Below, piece after piece: positions 9,063 through 61,192 of a DNA stretch of 64,000 bases; the first letter of the stretch is position 1; every line of letters begins with the position of its first letter. The DNA comes from Candidatus Harrisonbacteria bacterium (lineage in GTDB: Bacteria > Patescibacteriota > Minisyncoccia > UBA6257 > UBA11618). The stretch is taken from NCBI GenBank assembly GCA_016867415.1, contig VGJO01000001.1, positions 148,312 to 212,311 of the forward strand, read 5' to 3'. Below the pieces are notes generated by a model. It did not search any database and was not told the DNA's origin. It saw nothing but the letters and a program-made list of their open reading frames with translations. The translations under genes and the position numbers were made by a program.

Positions 9063-9157
9063 TTTTATGCAACTCGCCTACGTAGCTGTTCTAAAGTTCT
9101 AAAAAAAGCCAGAGCGTGGAGCCGGCCCACCTAGGGTCGAGCCTCCCTTAAGGGAGA

Positions 9158-9195
9158 ATAAAAACAGAGAATGTACTCATTCTCTGTTTTTATAA
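9158..9195. terminator. bidirectional hairpin with flanking A/T tracts (aaaaacagagaatg-tac-tcattctctgttttt) inside a divergent intergenic region
   Basis: perfect 9-bp inverted repeat seen directly; T-tract on + strand, A-tract upstream. Confidence 0.5.
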
Positions 9196-9256
9196 AAAGA
9201 TTAAAAATCTTTTGCTCGCCCCGCATACTTCACCACCCCTCCTAATCTTTGTGTTA

Positions 9257-9375
9257 CCAAAGAACCCCTCCCTTCCCCTATAGTGACTATTCTGAGAAAA
9301 AAATCTTTTCCGAAGATAAAGGGAAAGTTCGCCGGAAACTTTCCTGTGTCACGGTAGGGAAAGAAGGGGTTCTGG
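9257..9375 (+). repeat. motif-A element copy A: 28-nt inverted repeats (ccaaagaacccctcccttcccctatagtgac / gtcacggtagggaaagaaggggttctgg) flanking nested hairpins
   Basis: direct reading; arms ~26/28 complementary; shares core with copies at 18239, 32894, 39471. Confidence 0.6.
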
Positions 9376-9421
9376 AAACTATCTAAAATATAAGCTTAGT
9401 ATTTTTCCTAAAAAAGTATCC

Positions 9422-9946
9422 ATGCTTGCTTTTTATTTTTATTTTGTATATAAAGCTTTCAATTCCAATTTCCTTAAAATGAATCGCCTTCTTAAGCTGA
9501 CACTAGCGGTTATTATATTTTTTCTTTTTGCCAGCTTCTCTTTTGTTCTGCATGCCTTCTATATTTCTCCCTCCCACACCTTCGCTCTTAGTGAAAAAAA
9601 ATTTGCCAAAGACTCTGGTGGCAATCCTGATGCCGCTCTTCTTCTAAAAAACTTTTCTGATCTTCTCGAGGAGGGAAATATTGAAAAAGCTCTTCCGCTT
9701 CTTGCTAGTGCCGATAATGAAAAGAATTTCTTATTAATGAAAAAAGCTCTCGAGACAGAAAAGTCTCAAGGCTCCCTCCCACATCTCATCTCTCTTATTC
9801 GCCTTGCCACACTCGATGCTTCTCAATCCCCATCTTCCGCCGATCTTATTTTTTCTGTTTTTGACCCGGCTGCCGGTAATCTCCTAGGCGAAGTAATCAT
9901 CAGGAAAAACCAAATAGTGGGTAACTATCAGATTCACAGTTTCTAA
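9422..9946 (+). CDS. hypothetical membrane-anchored protein (likely true start at MNRLLKL, 9479)
   Basis: 174 aa ORF, N-terminal hydrophobic helix, no known motif. Confidence 0.4.
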   Translation: MLAFYFYFVYKAFNSNFLKMNRLLKLTLAVIIFFLFASFSFVLHAFYISPSHTFALSEKKFAKDSGGNPDAALLLKNFSDLLEEGNIEKALPLLASADNEKNFLLMKKALETEKSQGSLPHLISLIRLATLDASQSPSSADLIFSVFDPAAGNLLGEVIIRKNQIVGNYQIHSF

Positions 9947-13437: not shown

Positions 13438-13473
13438 TGTCATTCCGGCCACCGAGCCAGAATCCAGTACCTC
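13438..13473 (+). repeat. family-2 hairpin repeat (tgtcattccggcc-accgag-ccagaatccagtacctc)
   Basis: 12 nt after stop of 9950..13426; imperfect palindrome attccgg/ccagaat. Confidence 0.6.
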
Positions 13474-13608
13474 AAAAAAATAAAAGTTCGCAGAAGCTTT
13501 CATGTTTCCAAAAAAGGATAAAGACTTCTTTCAAGCAGTAATGATTTTTATATATAAAACCAAATTGTATTTGATTGAACTCTCAACTCAAGTTACTGTA
13601 AAGAAAAT

Positions 13609-14675: not shown

Positions 14676-15131
14676 CTAGATTTGCTTTATTTTCTCAATT
14701 CGTCTCGCGTGCCGCTCCTCTCCGGAAAAAGCTGTCGTAAGAAAAAGCTTCACTGCCGCGAGTGCCTCCTCCTGAGTCATAAATCGCGCCGCGAGTGACA
14801 AGACGTTTGCATCATTGTGTTCCCGAGCGAGTCGCACTATCCCTCTTCCTCGCTCATCCCATGGCCCATAAAAAGTCACTGCCCGCACTCCCGCGACTCT
14901 GTTTGCCACTATGGCCTCGCCCGCTCCCGATCCGCCCAGAATAACCCCAAAAGATCCCGCTTCCTTCGCTACCGCCTCCGCACACGGCCGAATATAGTCC
15001 GGATAATCATCCGCCGGATCAAAAGCCTCCGTTCCATGATCGATTACCATCATCCCCTCCGCTGCAAGCGCCCCTTTCAAAAATTCCTTAAGCTCAAAAC
15101 CTGCATGATCCGTAGCAATATGAATTGTCAT
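14676..15131 (-). CDS. rpiB: ribose-5-phosphate isomerase B
   Basis: 'IHIATDHAGFELKE', 'GVILGGSGAGEAIVANRVAGVRA' RpiB/LacAB signatures. Confidence 0.85.
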   Translation of the reverse strand: MTIHIATDHAGFELKEFLKGALAAEGMMVIDHGTEAFDPADDYPDYIRPCAEAVAKEAGSFGVILGGSGAGEAIVANRVAGVRAVTFYGPWDERGRGIVRLAREHNDANVLSLAARFMTQEEALAAVKLFLTTAFSGEERHARRIEKIKQI

Positions 15132-15148
15132 AAATTATTAAATCCACT

Positions 15149-16183
15149 TTATAGAAGTGCTGCCACTTTTTCCAGATGATGCACGAGTGTAGTCACATAC
15201 CCCCACTCATTGTCATACCATGCCATCACTTTTACAAGATCTCCTCCTACCACTTTAGTATATGAAAGATCCACCACGCAGCCATACGGCGTCCCAATTA
15301 TGTCCGAGGAGACTACTGGGTCCGAGATAGTGGCGAGCGCTCGATGCCATCGAGGTGTCTTTGCCTCTTCAATAAAGATGTGATTAATCTCGGCAACCTC
15401 TGTCTTTCTCTTTGATACAAAGGTAAAATCCGCGAGAGATACTGTTGGCGTTGGCACCCGCACTGCTACCGCGTCAAATTTCCCCATAAGAGAGGGGAGT
15501 GCTCGAGTGACCGCGATTGCCGCTCCCGAGTCTGATGGCACCATATTCACCCCCGCCGCTCGTCCCCGTCGAAAATCATTCTTCCCCCCCGTCCCATCCA
15601 CGAGGCCCTGCGTCGCCGTGTAGCTATGTGTCGTATTCAAAAATCCTTTCACTACTCCTACCGACTCTTCCATAATAGTCGCCAAAGGATGTGTGGCATT
15701 CGTCGTGCAGGAGCCATTCGAAGTGATAGCGCAAGCGCCGAGCGCTTCTTCATTCAGCCCCATGAGCACCGTCTGTCCGAGCTCCGAATCTAGATCCTTT
15801 GATGGCGCGGATAGGATCACCCGCTTCGCCCCTGCTTCAAGATGAGCCTTCGCCTTCTCATATGAATCAAATACCCCTGTGCACTCGATCACCGCATCTA
15901 CTGCAAGCTCCCTCCACGGCAGTGCCTGCGGCTCCCGATCATGTAGGATCGTGATCTGGGTGTCCCGTACCGTAAGATACTCCGCCGTCCCGCGCCGTGT
16001 GACAGAGACCGGATGCGCATACGAGTGATAGACCGAATCATATTTCAATAAGTATGCAAGATTATCCGCGGGCGTGAGATCATTGATCGCCACTATTTCA
16101 AACTCCGGCTTGCCAAAAATCTGCCGGAAAAAAATCCTCCCAATCCGTCCAAACCCATTGATCGCCACCCGCGTCTTCTTCAT
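15149..16183 (-). CDS. gap: glyceraldehyde-3-phosphate dehydrogenase
   Basis: 'VAINGFGRIGR' NAD motif, 'SNGSCTTN' catalytic Cys region (ASCTTN-like). Confidence 0.9.
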   Translation of the reverse strand: MKKTRVAINGFGRIGRIFFRQIFGKPEFEIVAINDLTPADNLAYLLKYDSVYHSYAHPVSVTRRGTAEYLTVRDTQITILHDREPQALPWRELAVDAVIECTGVFDSYEKAKAHLEAGAKRVILSAPSKDLDSELGQTVLMGLNEEALGACAITSNGSCTTNATHPLATIMEESVGVVKGFLNTTHSYTATQGLVDGTGGKNDFRRGRAAGVNMVPSDSGAAIAVTRALPSLMGKFDAVAVRVPTPTVSLADFTFVSKRKTEVAEINHIFIEEAKTPRWHRALATISDPVVSSDIIGTPYGCVVDLSYTKVVGGDLVKVMAWYDNEWGYVTTLVHHLEKVAALL

Positions 16184-16222
16184 TCCTCTATTTTACCAAA
16201 AAATCGATTGGGGATAGACGGT

Positions 16223-16260
16223 TGTGTCATTCCGGGCCAAGATCCGGAATCCAGTACCTT
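16223..16260 (+). repeat. family-2 hairpin repeat (tgtgtcattccggg-ccaagat-ccggaatccagtacctt)
   Basis: perfect 7-bp palindrome attccgg/ccggaat; located 40 nt upstream of gap start on opposite strand. Confidence 0.6.
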
Positions 16261-16858
16261 TAAAGTAGTAATATAAAATCCCTTGCCTTTTATAGATAAA
16301 GTAAGCAAATAAAAAAAGCCTACCCGCCCCTCGCGCCAAACAAGCTTTTCTTTCGTTTCCTCGATCATCCGCTGGAGTAATTTTGACCCCTAGTAGAAAG
16401 TAATCCAAAGCCGCATAGATTCTATTCAGTATCGCCTTTGGACATTCCAGTCAGAAGCAGTTATCAAAGTTGGGACTTTCCTCGGTCAAGTATTCGACCT
16501 CAGAAATTTTGACCTTCTTGATGATCTCAATCACTACCCTATAGCATTTCTTCTGCTGGTCTCGCTGGCTTTTTGTGATCTTTGTAAAAGGAAGACAGAC
16601 ATCTCCTTCTCTGCCCCGCCATTTTTCATTTTCTTCCTAGGAAAATCCAATGAGGTAGCACTCCTCAATATTCTTGCAGAGTACCACGTCGATCTTGAAG
16701 AATTTGTTAAGTTTACCCACCGCCTGATGACTCGATCCATAAAAAACCAGTGCGCTCTTAATCATCTTCCCCTCGTCCTAAAAAAAATAAAAAATGTGAG
16801 TGTTCCGTAACCGAAGTATTAAAAAATAATAAATAAAAAAGTAAAATAAAGCTCTCCT

Positions 16859-16886
16859 TTGACATATAAAATATTAGCTCTATACT
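16859..16886 (+). promoter_or_regulatory. near-consensus sigma70-type promoter TTGACA-N16-TATACT driving the tRNA-like/ncRNA locus
   Basis: ttgacatataaaatattagctctatact read directly; rare consensus match in this window. Confidence 0.5.
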
Positions 16887-17015
16887 AATTAAGCTCTTTA
16901 AATTGAGAGACATTACGCGTTTATACATTTCTAATAAATTTGTGGATGTGGTCGATTGGAGAGGCAGCGGCTCCGTAAGCCGTGCATCGAAGTTTGATTC
17001 TTTGTATCTACTTTT

Positions 17016-17087
17016 GTCGGGATAGATCAGTGGTAGGGCATAGGATTAAAAATCCAAATGTCGGAGGTTCAATTCCTTCACCCGGCT
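17016..17087 (+). ncRNA. tRNA-like gene with 7-nt anticodon loop UUAAAAA (anticodon AAA); possible pseudo-tRNA or tRNA-like module of a longer ncRNA
   Basis: cloverleaf: acceptor GTCGGGA/ACCCGGC (one A.A mismatch), D-arm GATC-AGTGGTA-GGGC, T-arm GGAGG-TTCAATT-CCTTC; unusual A34 anticodon; lies 125 nt downstream of promoter and 195 nt upstream of a strong terminator. Confidence 0.35.
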
Positions 17088-17280
17088 CTCGGTCTGAAGT
17101 CGCAAGTTACTTTGCCATTTAGATCGAAATCTCTCTTTGTCTATCGTCTTGATTTCCTTATTAGTCTTATACAAGCCCTGCGCTTGAGACTTTCCGAAAG
17201 GATTCCTAAAGGAAATGATTGACAAACTCCAGTCAACATCGAGTTCATTCCCTCGTTACTGGATGAGAGATGTTTCCTCT

Positions 17281-17316
17281 GCCGCTCGGACGAAAGTCCG
17301 AGCGGTTTTTCTTTTT
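17281..17316 (+). terminator. intrinsic terminator: gccgctcggac-GAAA-gtccgagcgg + TTTTTCTTTTT
   Basis: 10-bp GC-rich stem with GNRA loop followed by T-tract. Confidence 0.75.
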
Positions 17317-17337: not shown

Positions 17338-17462
17338 GAAATTGTAGGATTTTTTGGATGAAGTTTTGTAGTTCTTTTCGAGTATGTACCGGAGCATTCA
17401 AGAATTTGAGTGTGTGAAGATTAAGCTCAGAAAAAACTACAAAAATTCGACAAAAAGATCAG
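17338..17462 (+). repeat. family-1 structured element copy (arms attttttggatgaagttttgtagttctttt / aaaaaactacaaaaattcgacaaaaagat, core ...cggagcattc...gtgtgtgaag...)
   Basis: arms ~26/30 complementary; ends 24 nt before rpe ATG. Confidence 0.6.
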
Positions 17463-17485
17463 ACTTAATTTGTTATAATTAATTA

Positions 17486-18133
17486 ATGAGAATAATCCCC
17501 GCCACCAACGCCGACACCATCGAAAAATTCCGCACCCAACTCCACCGCTTCTCCTCATTTCTCCCTCATGACGCTACTATCCACATTGATCTCTGCGATG
17601 GTAAGTTCACCTCTCACAAGACTCTCCTTGATCTCTCCCTCATCGCCCCGGAAATAAAAAAGACCCCCTTCCGCTTTGAGGGTCATTTTATGGTAAATAA
17701 TCCTGAGCTTCTCATCCCCAATTTTTTAAGCCAAGCCATTTCCCGCGCTTTAATCCCTGTCGAAGTTTTTCACCACTATGAAAAGATCTTTGAGTGGGAA
17801 GAAAAGTACGCCGCCTCCCTCGCTTTCTCCGCCCGCGCTCTCAAGTCCGATGAGCTTCTCCTCTATGCGTTAAAAAAATCTCACCTCCGCGACTGCCTCA
17901 TCCTCGCCGTCCCTCCCGGCCCCGCTGGCCAAACCTTTGATCCTCACGCTCTCCAATCTGTCACAAAGATCAAAAATCATTTCCCCGACTGTCGCATCAC
18001 GGTCGACGGGGGTGTCACCCCCATTCTAATTCCGCTCTTGAAAGATCTCGGCGTCGACGCTGTCGTCCTCCATTCCACCTTCATCACCTCCGGCGACCCA
18101 TCCGCCCTCTTCTTCAATCTTTCTAATATATAA
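17486..18133 (+). CDS. rpe: ribulose-phosphate 3-epimerase-like protein (divergent)
   Basis: 'IHIDLCDGKF', 'GHFMV', 'LAVPPGPAGQTFDP', 'ITVDGGV' align to RPE metal/catalytic positions. Confidence 0.65.
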   Translation: MRIIPATNADTIEKFRTQLHRFSSFLPHDATIHIDLCDGKFTSHKTLLDLSLIAPEIKKTPFRFEGHFMVNNPELLIPNFLSQAISRALIPVEVFHHYEKIFEWEEKYAASLAFSARALKSDELLLYALKKSHLRDCLILAVPPGPAGQTFDPHALQSVTKIKNHFPDCRITVDGGVTPILIPLLKDLGVDAVVLHSTFITSGDPSALFFNLSNI

Positions 18134-27415: not shown

Positions 27416-28156
27416 ATGGATTTTCAAAAAATAATTCTTGAGGTAAGAGGCGGCGCTGGTGGCGACGAAGCCGCCATCTTTGCCGCCGACCTTGCCCGCA
27501 TGTATCAGCGCTATGCTGCAAAGCGGAATTGGTATTTTAATGTGATTGAATCCGCCGAGAGCGGTATTGGTGGGATCAAAAATTTTGTCGCTCAAATCCA
27601 GGGCGATAGCGCGTATGACGATTTGAAGCAGGAGTCTGGTGTTCATCGCGTCCAGCGCGTTCCCAAGACGGAAAAAAACGGACGGGTCCATACCTCGACC
27701 GCTACCGTCGCTGTCCTCCCCGAAGTCTCTCCCAAGGAAGTCGAGCTTCGCCAATCCGATATTGAGATGACCTTTTTCCGTTCCTCCGGTCCTGGTGGTC
27801 AAAACGTCAATAAAGTGGAGACTGCTGTCCGCCTCCATCACAAACCCACCGGCATCATTGTCGCTTCTCAAAACGAACGCTCCCAATTAAAAAACCGCGA
27901 AAACGCCGAAGGCATTCTCCGCGCCAAGCTCTATGAAGCAAAGATCGCCGAAGAAACCGCCGCTCTCGGCGCCGACCGCCGCTCCCAAGTGGGAACAGGG
28001 GATAGGAGTGAAAAAATGCGCACCTACAATTTCCCTCAAGACCGCATCACTGACCACCGCGTAGAAAAAAAATTCCACAATATTGAAAAAATAATGGAAG
28101 GTGATCTCGACCCAATCATCAAAGCCTTCAAAAAATCCTCCGAAGAAAATAAATAA
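27416..28156 (+). CDS. class I peptide chain release factor, RF1-like (PKT tripeptide, GGQ) lacking N-terminal domain 1
   Basis: starts at domain-2 equivalent '[17 protein letters not shown]'; '[23 protein letters not shown]'; '[11 protein letters not shown]'; 246 aa vs ~360 for RF1. Confidence 0.75.
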
Positions 28157-28631: not shown

Positions 28632-28914
28632 TCCACTACTACTAGATAAACAAAGAAAAAGAAGAAACAGAATAATCAGTAGAAGAGAGATAAGGTCGGC
28701 TACACGAGCGAAAGAAGCCAAAAATACGAGCGAAGATAAATCCTTTCTTGTTGCCCCAAAAGGTTTTGTTTATCAAACAGAGGATAATCAAACAGTAAAG
28801 TAAGTGAACACATCAAACACTTCTTTATCAGTCCGGCATTGCCATTACAATGCTTGGATTTATCGTGTTATCGACTACTTGAGAAAAGAAAACAATAAAG
28901 TTTCTTTTCTTTTC

Positions 28915-30418
<1,504 letters not shown>

Positions 30419-30813
30419 AACATAAGCGAATAATTACTCACATTCATCAAAGATAAACATGAGTAAGTACTGCTTACGTTGTGAATTTGGGACAACAAGA
30501 AAAAATTCATCTTCTTGTCATTGAAATGAATGAGTATCGCTACTCATACATTTCGTTTATGGAATGGTTAGAACTTGGTAAAAAATATCTAAAACATTTT
30601 TTACTAATTCTTAGTTTTTCAGTTATCAATCTGCGACCTTTTATTCTCTAAAAAAGCGGGAAAAAACCACGCTTGATTAGCTAATCAAGGAATATGGGTA
30701 ATTATAGCCGCCGCACCATATAAGTCAAGACCACTTTGGTACTCCAAGTGGCAGCCGACCGTGTGAAGAAAAAAGTAACCTTTTTTCTTTTTATGTGGGG
30801 CTTTTCATTCTGT

Positions 30814-41954: not shown

Positions 41955-42108
41955 AATTTTCTCTTTTCCAGCCGATGAACGGCTTACATCGTTAAGTATT
42001 TCTGAATATAGCTTTCAGACAAGCATTCTTGATGAAAATTTCAACGTTCTCCCACAAACACTATAAGTACCCAATTTTTATATAATTATGTAAAAATTTT
42101 TATTAGTG

Positions 42109-42180
42109 TGCCGAGAGGGTGAATCGAACACCCGACGCCAGCCTCTTCAGGGCTGCGCTCTACCACTGAGCTACCTCGGC
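42109..42180 (-). tRNA. tRNA-Phe (anticodon GAA)
   Basis: reverse complement GCCGAGGTAGCTCAGTGGTAGAGCGCAGCCCTGAAGAGGCTGGCGTCGGGTGTTCGATTCACCCTCTCGGCA folds as cloverleaf; anticodon loop CTGAAGA. Confidence 0.85.
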
Positions 42181-55852: not shown

Positions 55853-55988
55853 GTCGCGCTACCACAGCGAAATAATTTTGGAGGGTATTTCGATTTTCTT
55901 TGCGAGCAGCGAACGGAGCATACAAGAACTTTAGTATGTGAGTACGCAGCGGATCAAAAAAATTAAAATACCCTCCAAAAGTACGAGC
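55853..55988 (+). repeat. family-1 element copy (flank gtcgcgctaccacagcgaaataattttgg; arms ggagggtatttcgattttcttt / aaaaaaattaaaataccctcc; core gagcagcgaacggagcatac-aagaacttta-gtatgtgagtacgcagcgg; 3' ccaaaagtacgagc)
   Basis: arms end in perfect 11-bp ggagggtattt/aaataccctcc. Confidence 0.7.
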
Positions 55989-56017
55989 TTGTAGATAGTT
56001 ACTAAAAAGTAGTAAAT

Positions 56018-58894
56018 ATGGTGAAGAATTCAATTGAGAAAATCAAGAAACGTTCTGGTCGTCTCGTCCCTTTTGATCGCATTCGTATTGAGCGTGCGAT
56101 GGAAAAAGCTTTCATTAGCACTGAAGTTGATTATGAGATTAGTCTCTTAATCAGTCTCGCCGATGAAATTATTGAGACTCTTGAAGCTTGTTTTATTGAT
56201 CGGATTCCTAGCGTAGAAGATGTTCAGGATGAGGTGGAACGGAAGTTGCTTAAAAAAGGATTCTTGATGGTTGCCAAACACTATATTATTTATCGCCGCG
56301 AACATGAGAAGCTTCGCGAGAAAAAGCAAAAGGAGATCCTAAAAAAGATCGAACGCAGTGATCTCACGGTCAAAAAGCGTTCTGGAGAATTTGTTAATTT
56401 TGATATCACTCAAATTGAAGAATTAGTCTCAAACTGCGCCTCTGGTTTTCCTGATGGGATTATCGATGTGGCCGGCATTTTGGAAGATGCTAAGAAAAAT
56501 ATTTTTGACGGCATCAGTACCCGCGAAATCAATCAAGCTATTCTTCTTGGAGTGAAGAATCGTCTCGAGCTCGATCCTGAATATTCTTCCTACGCCGCCC
56601 GCCTCCTTTTCAATGATCTCTATAAAGACGTCTTGGGAGTCAATGAATTTTCTCCTGATTTTCAAAAGAAGCATCAGCAGTATTTTCCTAATCAGATAGT
56701 GGAAGGAGTAAATTCTGGCCGCCTCGACACTCGCCTTCTCGACTTTGACCTTTCCCGATTGAGTAAGGCGCTTAGCGCTGAAAATGATCGCTTCTTCGGC
56801 TATCTTGGTGCTCAAGTCATCTATGACCGCTATCTCGTCCGCGACGAATCCGACAAGCTCTATGAGACCCCTCAATATTTCTTTATGCGTGTTGCGATGG
56901 GTATTGCTATTAATGAGGAAAAGAAAGATGAGCGGGCAATTGAGTTTTATAAACTTATCTCGAGTTTTCTATATATGCCTTCTACCCCCACTTTGCTTCA
57001 TGCAGGCACCATCAAGCCTCAGATGAGCTCCTGCTACCTTACGACTGTTGAGGACGAGCTTTCTCATATTTTTAAGTGCATTGGCGACAACGCCCAGCTT
57101 TCCAAGTTTTCTGGTGGTGTGGCAAATGACTGGAGTAATATCCGAGCGACCGGTAGTCTTATTAGGTCTATTAATGTAGAGAGTCAGGGAGTGATTCCTT
57201 TCCTAAAAATTACCGATTCCACTACCTCCGCCATCAATCGCTCTGGAAAGCGCCGGGGTGCGACCTGCGTCTATCTTGAGACCTGGCACTATGACATCGA
57301 AGAATTTCTTGATCTTCGCCGCAATACTGGCGATGAGCGCCGCCGTACCCACGATACCAATACTGCCAACTGGATCCCTGATCTTTTTATGCAGCGTGTT
57401 GCCACTGATGGCTACTGGACGCTCTTCTCGCCTGAAGAAGTGCCCGAGCTTCATCATATCTATGGTCAAGCTTTCCGAGAAAAGTATGAAGCCTACGAAA
57501 AAGCTGCTGAAGAGGGCAAAATGCAGCTCACAAAAAAACTTAAGGCTCGTGACCTCTGGCGCAAGATGATTACAATGATTTTTGAGACGGGTCATCCGTG
57601 GGTTACTTTCAAAGATCCCTGTAATATCCGTTCGCCCCAAGATCATGTTGGCGTCGTCCACTCCTCCAATCTTTGCACTGAAATCACTCTCAATACCTCC
57701 GCCTCCGAGACCGCCGTCTGCAATCTTGGTTCTATCTCTATTCCCAGTCACATTGAGAATGGCCGCTTGGACAAAGTTGCCCTCGAGCGAACTATTCGGG
57801 TCGCGATGCGCATGCTCGACAATATCATTGATCACAATTTTTACCCCACCATCGAGGCCAAGTTTTCCAATCTTCGCCATCGTCCTGTCGGCCTTGGTAT
57901 TATGGGTTTCCAAGACGCACTTTTTGAGCTCGGTCTCCAGTTTGATTCCGTTGAAGCCGTTGAGTTTTCCGACGAGCTTATGGAATTTGTCGCCTATCAC
58001 GCCTACCTGGGTTCCTCCGAGCTTGCCGCTGAGCGGGGAAGTTACTCTACCTTCAAAGGAAGTAAGTGGGATCGGGGTATTCTCCCCTTAGATTCCTTAG
58101 GTCTTCTGGAGAAAGAGCGAGGTGAGCTTATTGAAGTTGATCATAAGACTCGTCTTGATTGGAATAAGCTTCGGAGCTTGATTAAAGAGCAGGGGATGAG
58201 GAACTCTAATTGCCTCGCAATCGCCCCTACGGCCACCATCTCCAATATTTCCGGCTGCCTCCCATCCATTGAGCCTATTTATAAAAATCTCTACGTAAAA
58301 TCAAATTTTAGTGGGGAATTTACTATCGTAAATAAGTACCTTATTCTTGATCTCAAAAAACTCGGCATTTGGACCAAAGATATCCTTGATAAGATAAAGT
58401 ACTTTGACGGCAGCATCCAAAAAATCGAGGAGATTCCCCTTAATATCCGTCTTCGCTACAAAGAAGCCTTTGAGATTGATCCCTATTGGGTGATTGCCCA
58501 CGCCGCTTTTCGTGGTAAATGGATCGACCAAAGCCAATCAGTGAATATCTTTACCACCAGCCAATCTGGTAAATTTATCGCCGATATTTACCTCAATGCC
58601 TGGCGGATGGGCCTCAAGACCACATATTATCTCCGCACCCTTGCTGTTTCCGGTATCGAAAAATCCACCATCGACATTAACAAAAACTACGAGAAAAAAG
58701 AGATTATTGATCAGGCGGTCGCTCCTATCGTAGAGACTATCGCCTCTCTTTCCTCTGTTCCTGTCTCCGCCCCTGTCATGATGGAAGCCGCCTCTTCTAC
58801 TGTAGCTTCTATCTCCGAGTCAATTTCTCCTAGTCCCGTCCTAAAAACCGGTATCCACATCTTCGAAGCCGGCCTCTGCGAATCCTGTCAGTAG
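56018..58894 (+). CDS. nrdA: class Ia ribonucleoside-diphosphate reductase alpha subunit with two N-terminal ATP-cone domains
   Basis: two 'VKKRSG..V.FD..' ATP cones, catalytic 'SSNLCTEI', C-terminal 'TTYYLRT' radical-transfer tyrosines and terminal CESCQ. Confidence 0.9.
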   Translation: MVKNSIEKIKKRSGRLVPFDRIRIERAMEKAFISTEVDYEISLLISLADEIIETLEACFIDRIPSVEDVQDEVERKLLKKGFLMVAKHYIIYRREHEKLREKKQKEILKKIERSDLTVKKRSGEFVNFDITQIEELVSNCASGFPDGIIDVAGILEDAKKNIFDGISTREINQAILLGVKNRLELDPEYSSYAARLLFNDLYKDVLGVNEFSPDFQKKHQQYFPNQIVEGVNSGRLDTRLLDFDLSRLSKALSAENDRFFGYLGAQVIYDRYLVRDESDKLYETPQYFFMRVAMGIAINEEKKDERAIEFYKLISSFLYMPSTPTLLHAGTIKPQMSSCYLTTVEDELSHIFKCIGDNAQLSKFSGGVANDWSNIRATGSLIRSINVESQGVIPFLKITDSTTSAINRSGKRRGATCVYLETWHYDIEEFLDLRRNTGDERRRTHDTNTANWIPDLFMQRVATDGYWTLFSPEEVPELHHIYGQAFREKYEAYEKAAEEGKMQLTKKLKARDLWRKMITMIFETGHPWVTFKDPCNIRSPQDHVGVVHSSNLCTEITLNTSASETAVCNLGSISIPSHIENGRLDKVALERTIRVAMRMLDNIIDHNFYPTIEAKFSNLRHRPVGLGIMGFQDALFELGLQFDSVEAVEFSDELMEFVAYHAYLGSSELAAERGSYSTFKGSKWDRGILPLDSLGLLEKERGELIEVDHKTRLDWNKLRSLIKEQGMRNSNCLAIAPTATISNISGCLPSIEPIYKNLYVKSNFSGEFTIVNKYLILDLKKLGIWTKDILDKIKYFDGSIQKIEEIPLNIRLRYKEAFEIDPYWVIAHAAFRGKWIDQSQSVNIFTTSQSGKFIADIYLNAWRMGLKTTYYLRTLAVSGIEKSTIDINKNYEKKEIIDQAVAPIVETIASLSSVPVSAPVMMEAASSTVASISESISPSPVLKTGIHIFEAGLCESCQ

Positions 58895-60960: not shown

Positions 60961-61192
60961 GTATACTAAGGAATCACCAACTATCTTCACCTTCCTCTGA
61001 AGATGGACTCGAGAGAAAATCCTCTCTTTCAATTGGTAATTACTATAATTATAGCATATTGATATATTATGTCAAATTAACACTAATTGACATAAGTATA
61101 AATATTATGTTATTTATTAAAAATAGCCTTTATCGCCAAAGGCTTTTCCCCGAAACTTGAAAACCCAACTCTTCTTCTGAAAGGTATCTATT

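Follow-up and report, generated by a model that had tools for sequence, protein, structure and literature searches.

Judged by analogy, the closest described counterpart of the locus analyzed here is tRNA-Other of Bacillus cereus (Rogers et al. 2012, PMC3399842), in which a pseudo-tRNA serves as the tRNA-like element of a longer regulatory RNA. Both are located at a genome rearrangement site or island border, and in both, a cloverleaf derived from a tRNA would presumably not function in translation. The transcript of tRNA-Other reaches beyond the cloverleaf on its 5' and 3' sides, a layout that the present unit shares, as known here from the sequence alone. Unlike tRNA-Other, the unit contains a tandem pair of cloverleaves, one of Thr and one of Phe ancestry, and bears no sequence relationship to the B. 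cereus element; no T-box or Fur-box link was found for it.

With ordinary tRNA operons and tRNA pseudogenes (Rfam family RF00005), the unit shares the 7/4/5/5 geometry of its cloverleaves and the mostly retained T-loop and D-loop GG; as in ordinary operons, the genes are spaced by 3 nt and lie between a sigma-70 promoter and an intrinsic terminator. The unit differs from such operons in its cloverleaf scores (36–40 bits as compared with 65), in residues C33 and U56, in an AAA anticodon, in three mismatched pairs, and in a structured trailer of 190 nt. tRNA-linked small RNAs whose processing and function have been demonstrated include the 3' external transcribed spacer of glyW-cysT-leuZ in E. 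coli, MALAT1/mascRNA, and the tRNA-miRNA units of MHV68. In these systems the tRNA module sets the end of a neighboring noncoding RNA through RNase P or RNase Z, and the unit resembles them in architecture only. In tmRNA and the bacterial Y RNA (YrlA), a tRNA mimic likewise lies within a longer structured RNA; in tmRNA the 5' and 3' ends together make up the tRNA-like domain, and tmRNA also has the G3:U70 pair that is present in the first of the two cloverleaves. In contrast to these RNAs, the anticodon arms of both cloverleaves are complete, a tag reading frame is not apparent, and there is no corresponding Rfam match at E ≤ 10; a tmRNA was also rejected on the ARAGORN results, which include none in the window, even at a threshold of 90%.

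A dedicated mistranslating tRNA, tRNAProX, has been described in Streptomyces (PMC10404621). Like tRNAProX and the anticodon variants of tRNA-Ala, the first cloverleaf joins one acceptor-stem identity (here alanine, G3:U70) to the anticodon of another amino acid (here CGU, Thr), but the mistranslating tRNAs are well formed, conserved across genera, and adjoin a dedicated synthetase, whereas this cloverleaf has defects at universal positions, no relatives, and no partner gene. Patescibacteria also have tRNAs with a group I intron of ~200–300 nt in the anticodon loop (PMC13011429). An intron-containing tRNA was rejected as a candidate here: both cloverleaves are uninterrupted, ARAGORN with introns adds nothing, and there is no match to Intron_gpI at E ≤ 10. 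The unit most likely belongs with the pseudo-tRNA and tRNA-like genes, as a curiosity rather than a new class.

Architecture of the unit

The locus is best read as a transcription unit of the stable-RNA type, complete in itself, that comprises two tandem tRNA-derived cloverleaves and a folded trailer. The order of its parts is promoter, leader of ~49 nt, tRNA-like 1, a UUU spacer, tRNA-like 2, trailer of ~190 nt, and terminator, and it is flanked by genes of the pentose-phosphate pathway and glycolysis (gap, rpiB, rpe, and tkt). Coordinates are those of the window, by which we mean the whole 64-kb stretch of DNA that was analyzed, from a genome of the CPR (Patescibacteria).

14676–15131, minus strand: rpiB
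15149–16183, minus strand: gap
16819–16858, plus strand: A/T-rich tract, 40 nt nearly all A/T, directly 5' of the -35 hexamer; putative UP element
16859–16886, plus strand: sigma-70-type promoter, TTGACA-N16-TATACT; expected transcription start near 16893
16893–16941, plus strand: 5' leader of ~49 nt with its start placed from the -10 hexamer; weak structure (MFE -4.7 kcal/mol, z = -0.8)
16942–17012, plus strand: tRNA-like 1, Thr(CGU)-type cloverleaf, anticodon at 16974–16976
17013–17015, plus strand: UUU spacer between the cloverleaves, as read from the sequence
17016–17087, plus strand: tRNA-like 2, Phe-derived cloverleaf, anticodon AAA at 17048–17050
17088–17280, plus strand: structured trailer, made up of the next three elements
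17089–17127, plus strand: hairpin A (10+5 bp), predicted fold
17129–17271, plus strand: multibranch domain closed by AUCUCUC/GAGAGAU, predicted fold
17272–17280, plus strand: unpaired C/U-rich stretch just 5' of the terminator, with UUUCCUCU at 17272–17279
17281–17316, plus strand: intrinsic terminator, an 11-bp G+C-rich stem with a GAAA loop (17281–17306) and the tail TTTTTCTTTTT
17486–18133, plus strand: rpe, with split transketolase (tkt) genes beyond

The near-consensus promoter recognized by the first-pass annotation matches the consensus at 11 of 12 positions. Sites with at least 11 of 12 matches number 8 in the 64-kb window as compared with 1.5 ± 1.2 in shuffled sequences, so that the promoter of the unit cannot be put down to a random match. 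A promoter-like site with the same N16 spacing (30728→30701) lies ~283 nt upstream of the 16S rRNA gene. At the other end of the unit, the strong terminator with a GNRA loop is also borne out, with 8 G-C pairs in its stem and a T-run that extends to 17316. The same annotation had placed a single tRNA-like gene with an AAA anticodon in a unit of ~420 nt; the promoter, this cloverleaf, and the terminator stand, but there are two tandem tRNA-like genes rather than one. The 125 nt that had been taken as leader contain a second cloverleaf at 16942–17012, which leaves a true leader of ~49 nt. The nucleotide at position -1 is U in both tRNA-like sequences.

Within the trailer, the stretch 17088–17276 has an MFE of -56.3 kcal/mol, with z = -4.5 for the plus strand as compared with -2.6 for the minus strand. 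The z-score is noisy, and in a rough genome background ~8% of 189-nt windows match it, so that the fold is notable rather than exceptional. No Rfam match was obtained for the trailer at E ≤ 10, including tmRNA, 6S, SRP, RNase P, Y RNA, T-box, and group I intron. A match to a known RNA family, which had been named beforehand as counting against the proposed reading, is thus formally present for the cloverleaves (RF00005) and absent for the trailer. Two further decayed tRNAs in the trailer were considered and rejected as noise, since ARAGORN reports them only at a threshold of 70%, at which the window yields 150 calls. A crude scan for small RNA-target duplexes between the trailer and the 5' regions of the window's genes, a weak method, gave a best value of -49.3 kcal/mol, which lies within the range of the shuffled controls (mean -42.3, S.D. 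3.3, minimum -51.5).

The two cloverleaves

The gathering cut-off of the Rfam tRNA model is 29 bits, and both tRNA-like sequences exceed it, with 35.9 bits for tRNA-like 1 and 39.7 bits for tRNA-like 2, as compared with 65.3 and 65.4 bits for the window's genuine tRNA-His and tRNA-Phe(GAA). The genuine tRNA-Phe(GAA), which had been noted previously, is located by ARAGORN and Rfam at 42108–42180 on the minus strand. In both genuine tRNAs the cloverleaf is the MFE fold, whereas in the tRNA-like sequences it is 5–6 kcal/mol worse (-15.1 as compared with -21.4 kcal/mol for tRNA-like 1 and -16.5 as compared with -21.6 kcal/mol for tRNA-like 2), and the MFE fold of each is not a cloverleaf. The helices are not those of functional elongators, in which all four are formed by standard pairs and the cloverleaf is thermodynamically competitive, since neither cloverleaf here is the MFE fold and the pairs 7-66, 11-24, and 28-42 of tRNA-like 2 are mismatched. 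An encoded CCA is absent from both tRNA-like sequences and from the genuine tRNAs here; because the genuine tRNA genes also lack it, the processing route that we assume below would already be needed in this organism.

tRNA-like 1 is identified by ARAGORN as tRNA-Thr(cgt) at a threshold of 95%, and it is the sole additional call across the window both at 95% and at 90%. All 21 of its 21 pairs are formed without a mismatch, and five of them are G-U (3-70, 7-66, 11-24, 27-43, and 50-64). Neutral substitution in a Watson-Crick pair has a G-U outcome only about one time in four, and the retention of every pair despite five G-U pairs therefore suggests selection for the fold; tRNA-like 1 appears still to be constrained to fold. 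Elongator tRNAs have the universal nucleotides U8, A14, G18, G19, U33, G53, U54, U55, C56, A58, and C61. tRNA-like 1 departs from this set in having C33 in place of U33 in its anticodon loop (UCCGUAA) and U56 in place of C56 in its T-loop (UUUGAUU), and it also has G21 and the discriminator U73. The putative assignment to Thr rests on the anticodon arm. Recognition by the E. coli ThrRS depends on G1-C72, C2-G71, G35, and U36, of which G1-C72, G35, and U36 are present in tRNA-like 1, and the 2-71 pair is U-A; the molecule also carries G3:U70, the alanine identity pair. No BLAST match to tRNA-like 1 was found in phage records or E. coli genomes.

tRNA-like 2 was the cloverleaf with an AAA anticodon described in the first-pass annotation, and it is recovered as such by ARAGORN with default settings, as tRNA-Phe(aaa) at 17016–17088, and by Rfam with a score above the cut-off. 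The anticodon loop UUAAAAA and the A·A mismatch at 7-66 are likewise seen in the Rfam alignment and in the structure drawing. The D-arm, which had been called normal, is not so, because its stem contains an A11·G24 mismatch and a U12·G23 pair. In all, the molecule has three non-canonical pairs, A7·A66, A11·G24, and A28·A42 (the last in the anticodon stem), together with three G-U pairs, and its discriminator is U73, not A73. The universal nucleotide positions are kept in the Rfam alignment, and among the residues retained are G18, G19, U20, the T-loop UUCAAUU, A35, A36, U59, and U60. Identity for the E. coli and Thermus thermophilus PheRS is conferred by G34, A35, A36, A73, and U20, with U59/U60. 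In tRNA-like 2 this set is incomplete, with A34 and U73 in place of G34 and A73. To our knowledge, bacteria make no use of AAA as an anticodon, and their Phe anticodon is GAA.

tRNA-like 2 reads clearly as Phe-derived. BLAST searches of 50,697 phage records and of 5,426 E. coli genomes matched it only to annotated tRNA-Phe genes, with 79% identity over 57 nt. It is not a recent duplicate of the resident tRNA-Phe(GAA), because the two are only 63% identical; its origin may lie in an old duplication or in gene acquisition, and in the best explanation it is decaying.

Comparative evidence and genomic setting

No homologue of the unit was found in genomes, metagenomes, viral contigs, or phage records by exact loop patterns and BLAST. 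A loop-anchored pattern for the Phe-type AAA cloverleaf, in which the stems were left free, was matched in none of 185,579 species genomes, and neither of the loop-anchored patterns has a match in viral contigs. The tandem pattern Thr(CGU)-Phe(RAA) is matched in JGI metagenomes at 2 unrelated loci only. Of the pattern matches that were followed up and rejected, L013 is a GC-rich cluster of genuine tRNAs and L014 is a chance match.

Nine contigs of the same species (L001–L009) are 99.7–100% identical over the region, and for this reason no covariation is available. The tRNA-like part is invariant in all five of the other assemblies that cover it (L001–L005, from five separate sequencing runs), where ~1.7 variant sites would be expected. 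Variant sites in the same-species contigs number 0 in the promoter, leader, and tRNA-like sequences, 2 in the trailer, and 5 in the upstream intergenic region, counts that are too few to test constraint. The density in the trailer, 2 in 228 nt, equals the intergenic rate, and both of the SNPs fall in predicted loops. A polymorphism in the length of a T/A run is located at 16830, inside the upstream A/T tract, with an indel in L001, L003, and L004.

The Rpe protein encoded at 17486–18133 is identical to FJY91_00785 of 'Candidatus Harrisonbacteria bacterium' in the protein search; it has no homologue besides itself at E ≤ 1e-10 in the protein collection and no relative in GTDB genomes. The closest GAPDH is 62% identical. 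In the three nearest relatives (L010–L012) the order of genes is spoU-DUF192-gap-rpiB-rpe-tkt, all on one strand, with close packing of gap, rpiB, and rpe in L011; the unit is absent from the contigs of all three, which contain no tRNA. This order is likely to be ancestral. In the window, gap and rpiB are inverted and the unit lies inside a junction of 1.3 kb. Because gap, rpiB, and rpe are contiguous in the nearest relatives and the unit is absent from them, we conclude that it occupies a lineage-specific rearrangement junction. Nothing significant emerged when the inverted gap-rpiB block was checked for inverted repeats on its flanks and the 1.3-kb junction for remnants of genes. Other non-coding debris and repeats are also present in the rearranged junction.

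Possible roles of the unit

Nucleotides needed for normal decoding or aminoacylation have been lost from both cloverleaves, and for this reason we take the two to be expressed pseudo-tRNAs or tRNA-like RNAs. The reading that we prefer, to which we assign a probability of roughly 0.45, is that the unit is an expressed pair of this kind that is excised by the tRNA-processing enzymes and stands outside normal decoding. The first cloverleaf would descend from a tRNA of the Thr(CGU) type and the second from a tRNA-Phe whose wobble G has changed to A, from GAA to AAA. A primary transcript of ~420 nt would be cleaved by RNase P at G1 of each cloverleaf and trimmed 3' of U73 by RNase Z or exonucleases, to give two tRNA-like RNAs and a trailer stabilized by the terminator, none of which would serve as a regular decoder. 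The unit would then be a lineage-specific relic of an acquired or displaced Thr-Phe tRNA pair, in a junction that probably arose by inversion of gap-rpiB relative to the ancestral order gap-rpiB-rpe-tkt. The first-pass annotation had offered a pseudo-tRNA, a processing handle, or an unusual noncoding RNA. Its view of the sequence as tRNA-derived and non-canonical agrees with the low Rfam scores, the loss of universal and identity nucleotides, cloverleaves that are not the MFE fold, and the AAA pattern that is found in none of the species genomes; that there are two tandem genes had been missed.

Several observations count against the preferred reading. A near-consensus promoter and a very strong terminator are unexpected for a long-dead gene, and the 21 pairs kept in tRNA-like 1 point to selection for the fold. 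The identity of the tRNA-like part in five assemblies weighs weakly in the same direction. The trailer, too, is more structured than its shuffles and has its SNPs in predicted loops.

A tentative alternative, possible though less probable than the preferred reading, is that the tRNA-like sequences are processing handles. The product would then be a small RNA of ~230 nt formed from the trailer (17089–~17315), with a 5' end defined by RNase P or RNase Z and a 3' end stabilized by the terminator, or else the regulatory RNA would be the whole transcript, with the tRNA-like elements contained in it, as has been proposed for B. cereus tRNA-Other, which provides a precedent for a pseudo-tRNA within a larger regulatory RNA (PMC3399842). 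The strand difference in the trailer z-scores, the strong terminator that the trailer has of its own, the unpaired C/U-rich UUUCCUCU directly before it, the location of both SNPs of the same-species contigs in predicted loops, and the lack of a trailer ORF with homologues are consistent with such a product, but a comparable z-score is reached by ~8% of 189-nt windows, the trailer varies at the intergenic rate, neither a homologue nor covariation was found, and the duplex search did no better than the shuffled controls. That both cloverleaves are instead functional, if unusual, tRNAs is unlikely. Such tRNAs would serve the ribosome or a tRNA-dependent enzyme; they might be an ACG reader charged by AlaRS through G3:U70, in a deliberate Thr-to-Ala mistranslation, and a UUU-specific tRNA-Phe(AAA), or they might be aminoacyl donors for modification of the cell wall or lipids. 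Scores above the Rfam gathering cut-off, the alanine pair of tRNA-like 1, and the G18, G19, U20, A35, A36, and UUCAAUU T-loop kept by tRNA-like 2 are in accord with this proposal, as are the strong promoter of the stable-RNA type and the use of codons, UUU being the commoner Phe codon at 30 per 1000 (ACG, 8.6 per 1000). An A34, unmodified or deaminated, in the split Phe/Leu box would misread Leu codons, and this consequence for tRNA-like 2 argues against the proposal together with its lack of G34 and A73, its three mismatched pairs, and the absence of a Phe-type AAA cloverleaf from 185,579 species genomes. It is further opposed by C33 and U56 of tRNA-like 1 at universally conserved positions, by MFE folds that are not cloverleaves, and by the neighbors of the unit (gap, rpiB, rpe, and tkt), among which no gene for a synthetase or a tRNA-dependent transferase adjoins it, although dedicated mistranslating tRNAs are known in Streptomyces (PMC10404621).

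At the other extreme, the locus could be a silent relic or a chance assembly, in which dead pseudogenes happen to lie among promoter-like and terminator-like sites that are not used together. Matches to a consensus are in themselves no proof of function, and the unit does lie in a rearranged junction with other non-coding debris and repeats, but this explanation is quite unlikely. Sites with 11 of 12 matches are five times enriched over shuffles and precede real genes, including that for 16S rRNA, and a promoter, two cloverleaves, and an 11-bp terminator, all ordered on the same strand within 460 nt, would not be expected by chance. It is hardly credible that the region instead encodes a small protein. 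An ORF of 54 amino acids (17058–17222) is present on the plus strand, with an AGGA 12 nt upstream of its ATG at 17058, as is one of 59 amino acids (17046–17225) on the minus strand; however, the plus-strand ORF begins within the cloverleaf of tRNA-like 2, has never been called as a gene, and lacks homologues in a set of 1.84 billion representative proteins, where the one match (E = 7e-5) came without an aligned stretch. This result upholds the earlier statement that the ~190 nt of the trailer contain no plausible ORF. There are also no Pfam matches, no gene is called in the region of the unit in the public contigs, and the consecutive NCBI protein accessions allow a single CDS between gap and tkt, namely rpe.

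A broader proposal is that the unit is a functional operon of tRNA-mimic noncoding RNAs, with foldable modules, one with the alanine pair G3:U70 on a Thr anticodon and one with an all-A anticodon loop, that act as decoys or handles and with processing by RNase P and RNase Z that releases a regulatory RNA of ~230 nt. We regard this as doubtful. If true, it would be the first tRNA-handle unit for small RNA biogenesis in Patescibacteria, or the first natural tRNA there with Ala identity and a Thr anticodon; we know of no description of either in this group. Expression and processing of the unit, if they occur, would make it a natural case in which modules derived from tRNAs were taken into a non-coding transcript, in an organism whose genome is very small and in which hardly any regulatory RNAs have been characterized, and would allow a test of an acceptor stem with alanine identity joined to a Thr anticodon. 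If it is merely a decaying pair of tRNAs, its value is in annotation: the "tRNA-Phe(AAA)" reported by ARAGORN with default settings should be flagged as a pseudogene, and its Thr-like neighbor is missed. The locus is also the marker of an inversion, specific to this lineage, in the cluster of pentose-phosphate genes.

Long hairpins upstream of open reading frames

The window contains three copies of a long hairpin, each of ~115 nt, that make up one family.

Copies of the long hairpin in the 64 kb window
17348–17460 (+): copy 1, ending 26–27 nt upstream of the rpe start codon
27301–27414 (+): copy 2, with its 3' end abutting the first ATG of the ORF at 27416–28156
55880–55990 (+): copy 3, ending 26–27 nt upstream of the start of a 958-residue ORF at 56018 (+)

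The conserved apical core, CGGAGCATWCAAGAAYTTNAGTRTGTGA, is exact in two of the three copies, against a chance expectation of 0. The outer stems diverge, with compensatory changes at 11 of the 37 predicted pairs. The family has no match to any Rfam family; it could represent a regulatory element, RNA or DNA, in a 5'-proximal position, or a repeat of the REP or MITE type.

The gap-rpiB segment and its surroundings

In the contigs of three relatives (L010–L012), the gene order is spoU-DUF192-gap-rpiB-rpe-tktN, relative to which gap-rpiB is inverted in the window (14676–16183). A search for a flanking inverted repeat able to account for the inversion found none. A 40-nt repeat is present in two copies, 13438–13477 and 16225–16264, that are 80% identical and include the palindrome ATTCCGG...CCGGAAT. 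The second copy falls within a 62-residue ORF upstream of gap, so this ORF is possibly not a genuine gene.

The rpe gene starts with the ATG at 17486 (region 17469–17486); gap, on the minus strand, starts with the ATG at 16183 (region 16183–16200). Each start codon is preceded, at a distance of only ~7–10 nt, by a −10-like hexamer that carries an extended TG: TGTTATAAT for rpe and TGGTAAAAT for gap. This close spacing suggests that both mRNAs are leaderless or near-leaderless.

Other structured regions and the 16S rRNA locus

Besides the tRNA-like unit, another non-coding promoter-to-terminator unit is present at 61075–60925 (−). It has a perfect promoter, TTGACA-N16-TATAAT (12/12), followed by an RNA of ~115 nt with a good predicted fold (z = −4.1, the fold-energy score relative to shuffled sequences) and a 3' end at the terminator CCCGCCGAAAAAATCTCGGCGGGCAATTTTTTT; comparison of the unit with Rfam gave nothing above noise. 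The 368-nt intergenic region at 9063–9430 (+) has a very strong predicted structure (z = −6.9), with a long C-rich/G-rich hairpin around 9260–9375 as well as hairpins resembling terminators, and has no Rfam match at the gathering threshold.

The 16S rRNA gene region occupies 28913–30728 (−), and the 23S gene is absent from the window. A promoter-like site, TTGACT-N16-TATAAT, is located at 30728→30701, and the 16S leader is strongly structured (z of about −8.6 for 30430–30618).

A tRNA cluster in a metagenome contig

Positions 1–800 of Ga0190275_10401237, an unrelated GC-rich metagenome contig matched by the tandem Thr(CGU)-Phe(RAA) tRNA pattern, hold at least five tightly clustered tRNAs with high scores, among them a real Thr(CGU)-Phe(GAA) tandem. 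The cluster, which is adjoined by a small Cys-rich ORF, looks like a phage-type tRNA cluster.
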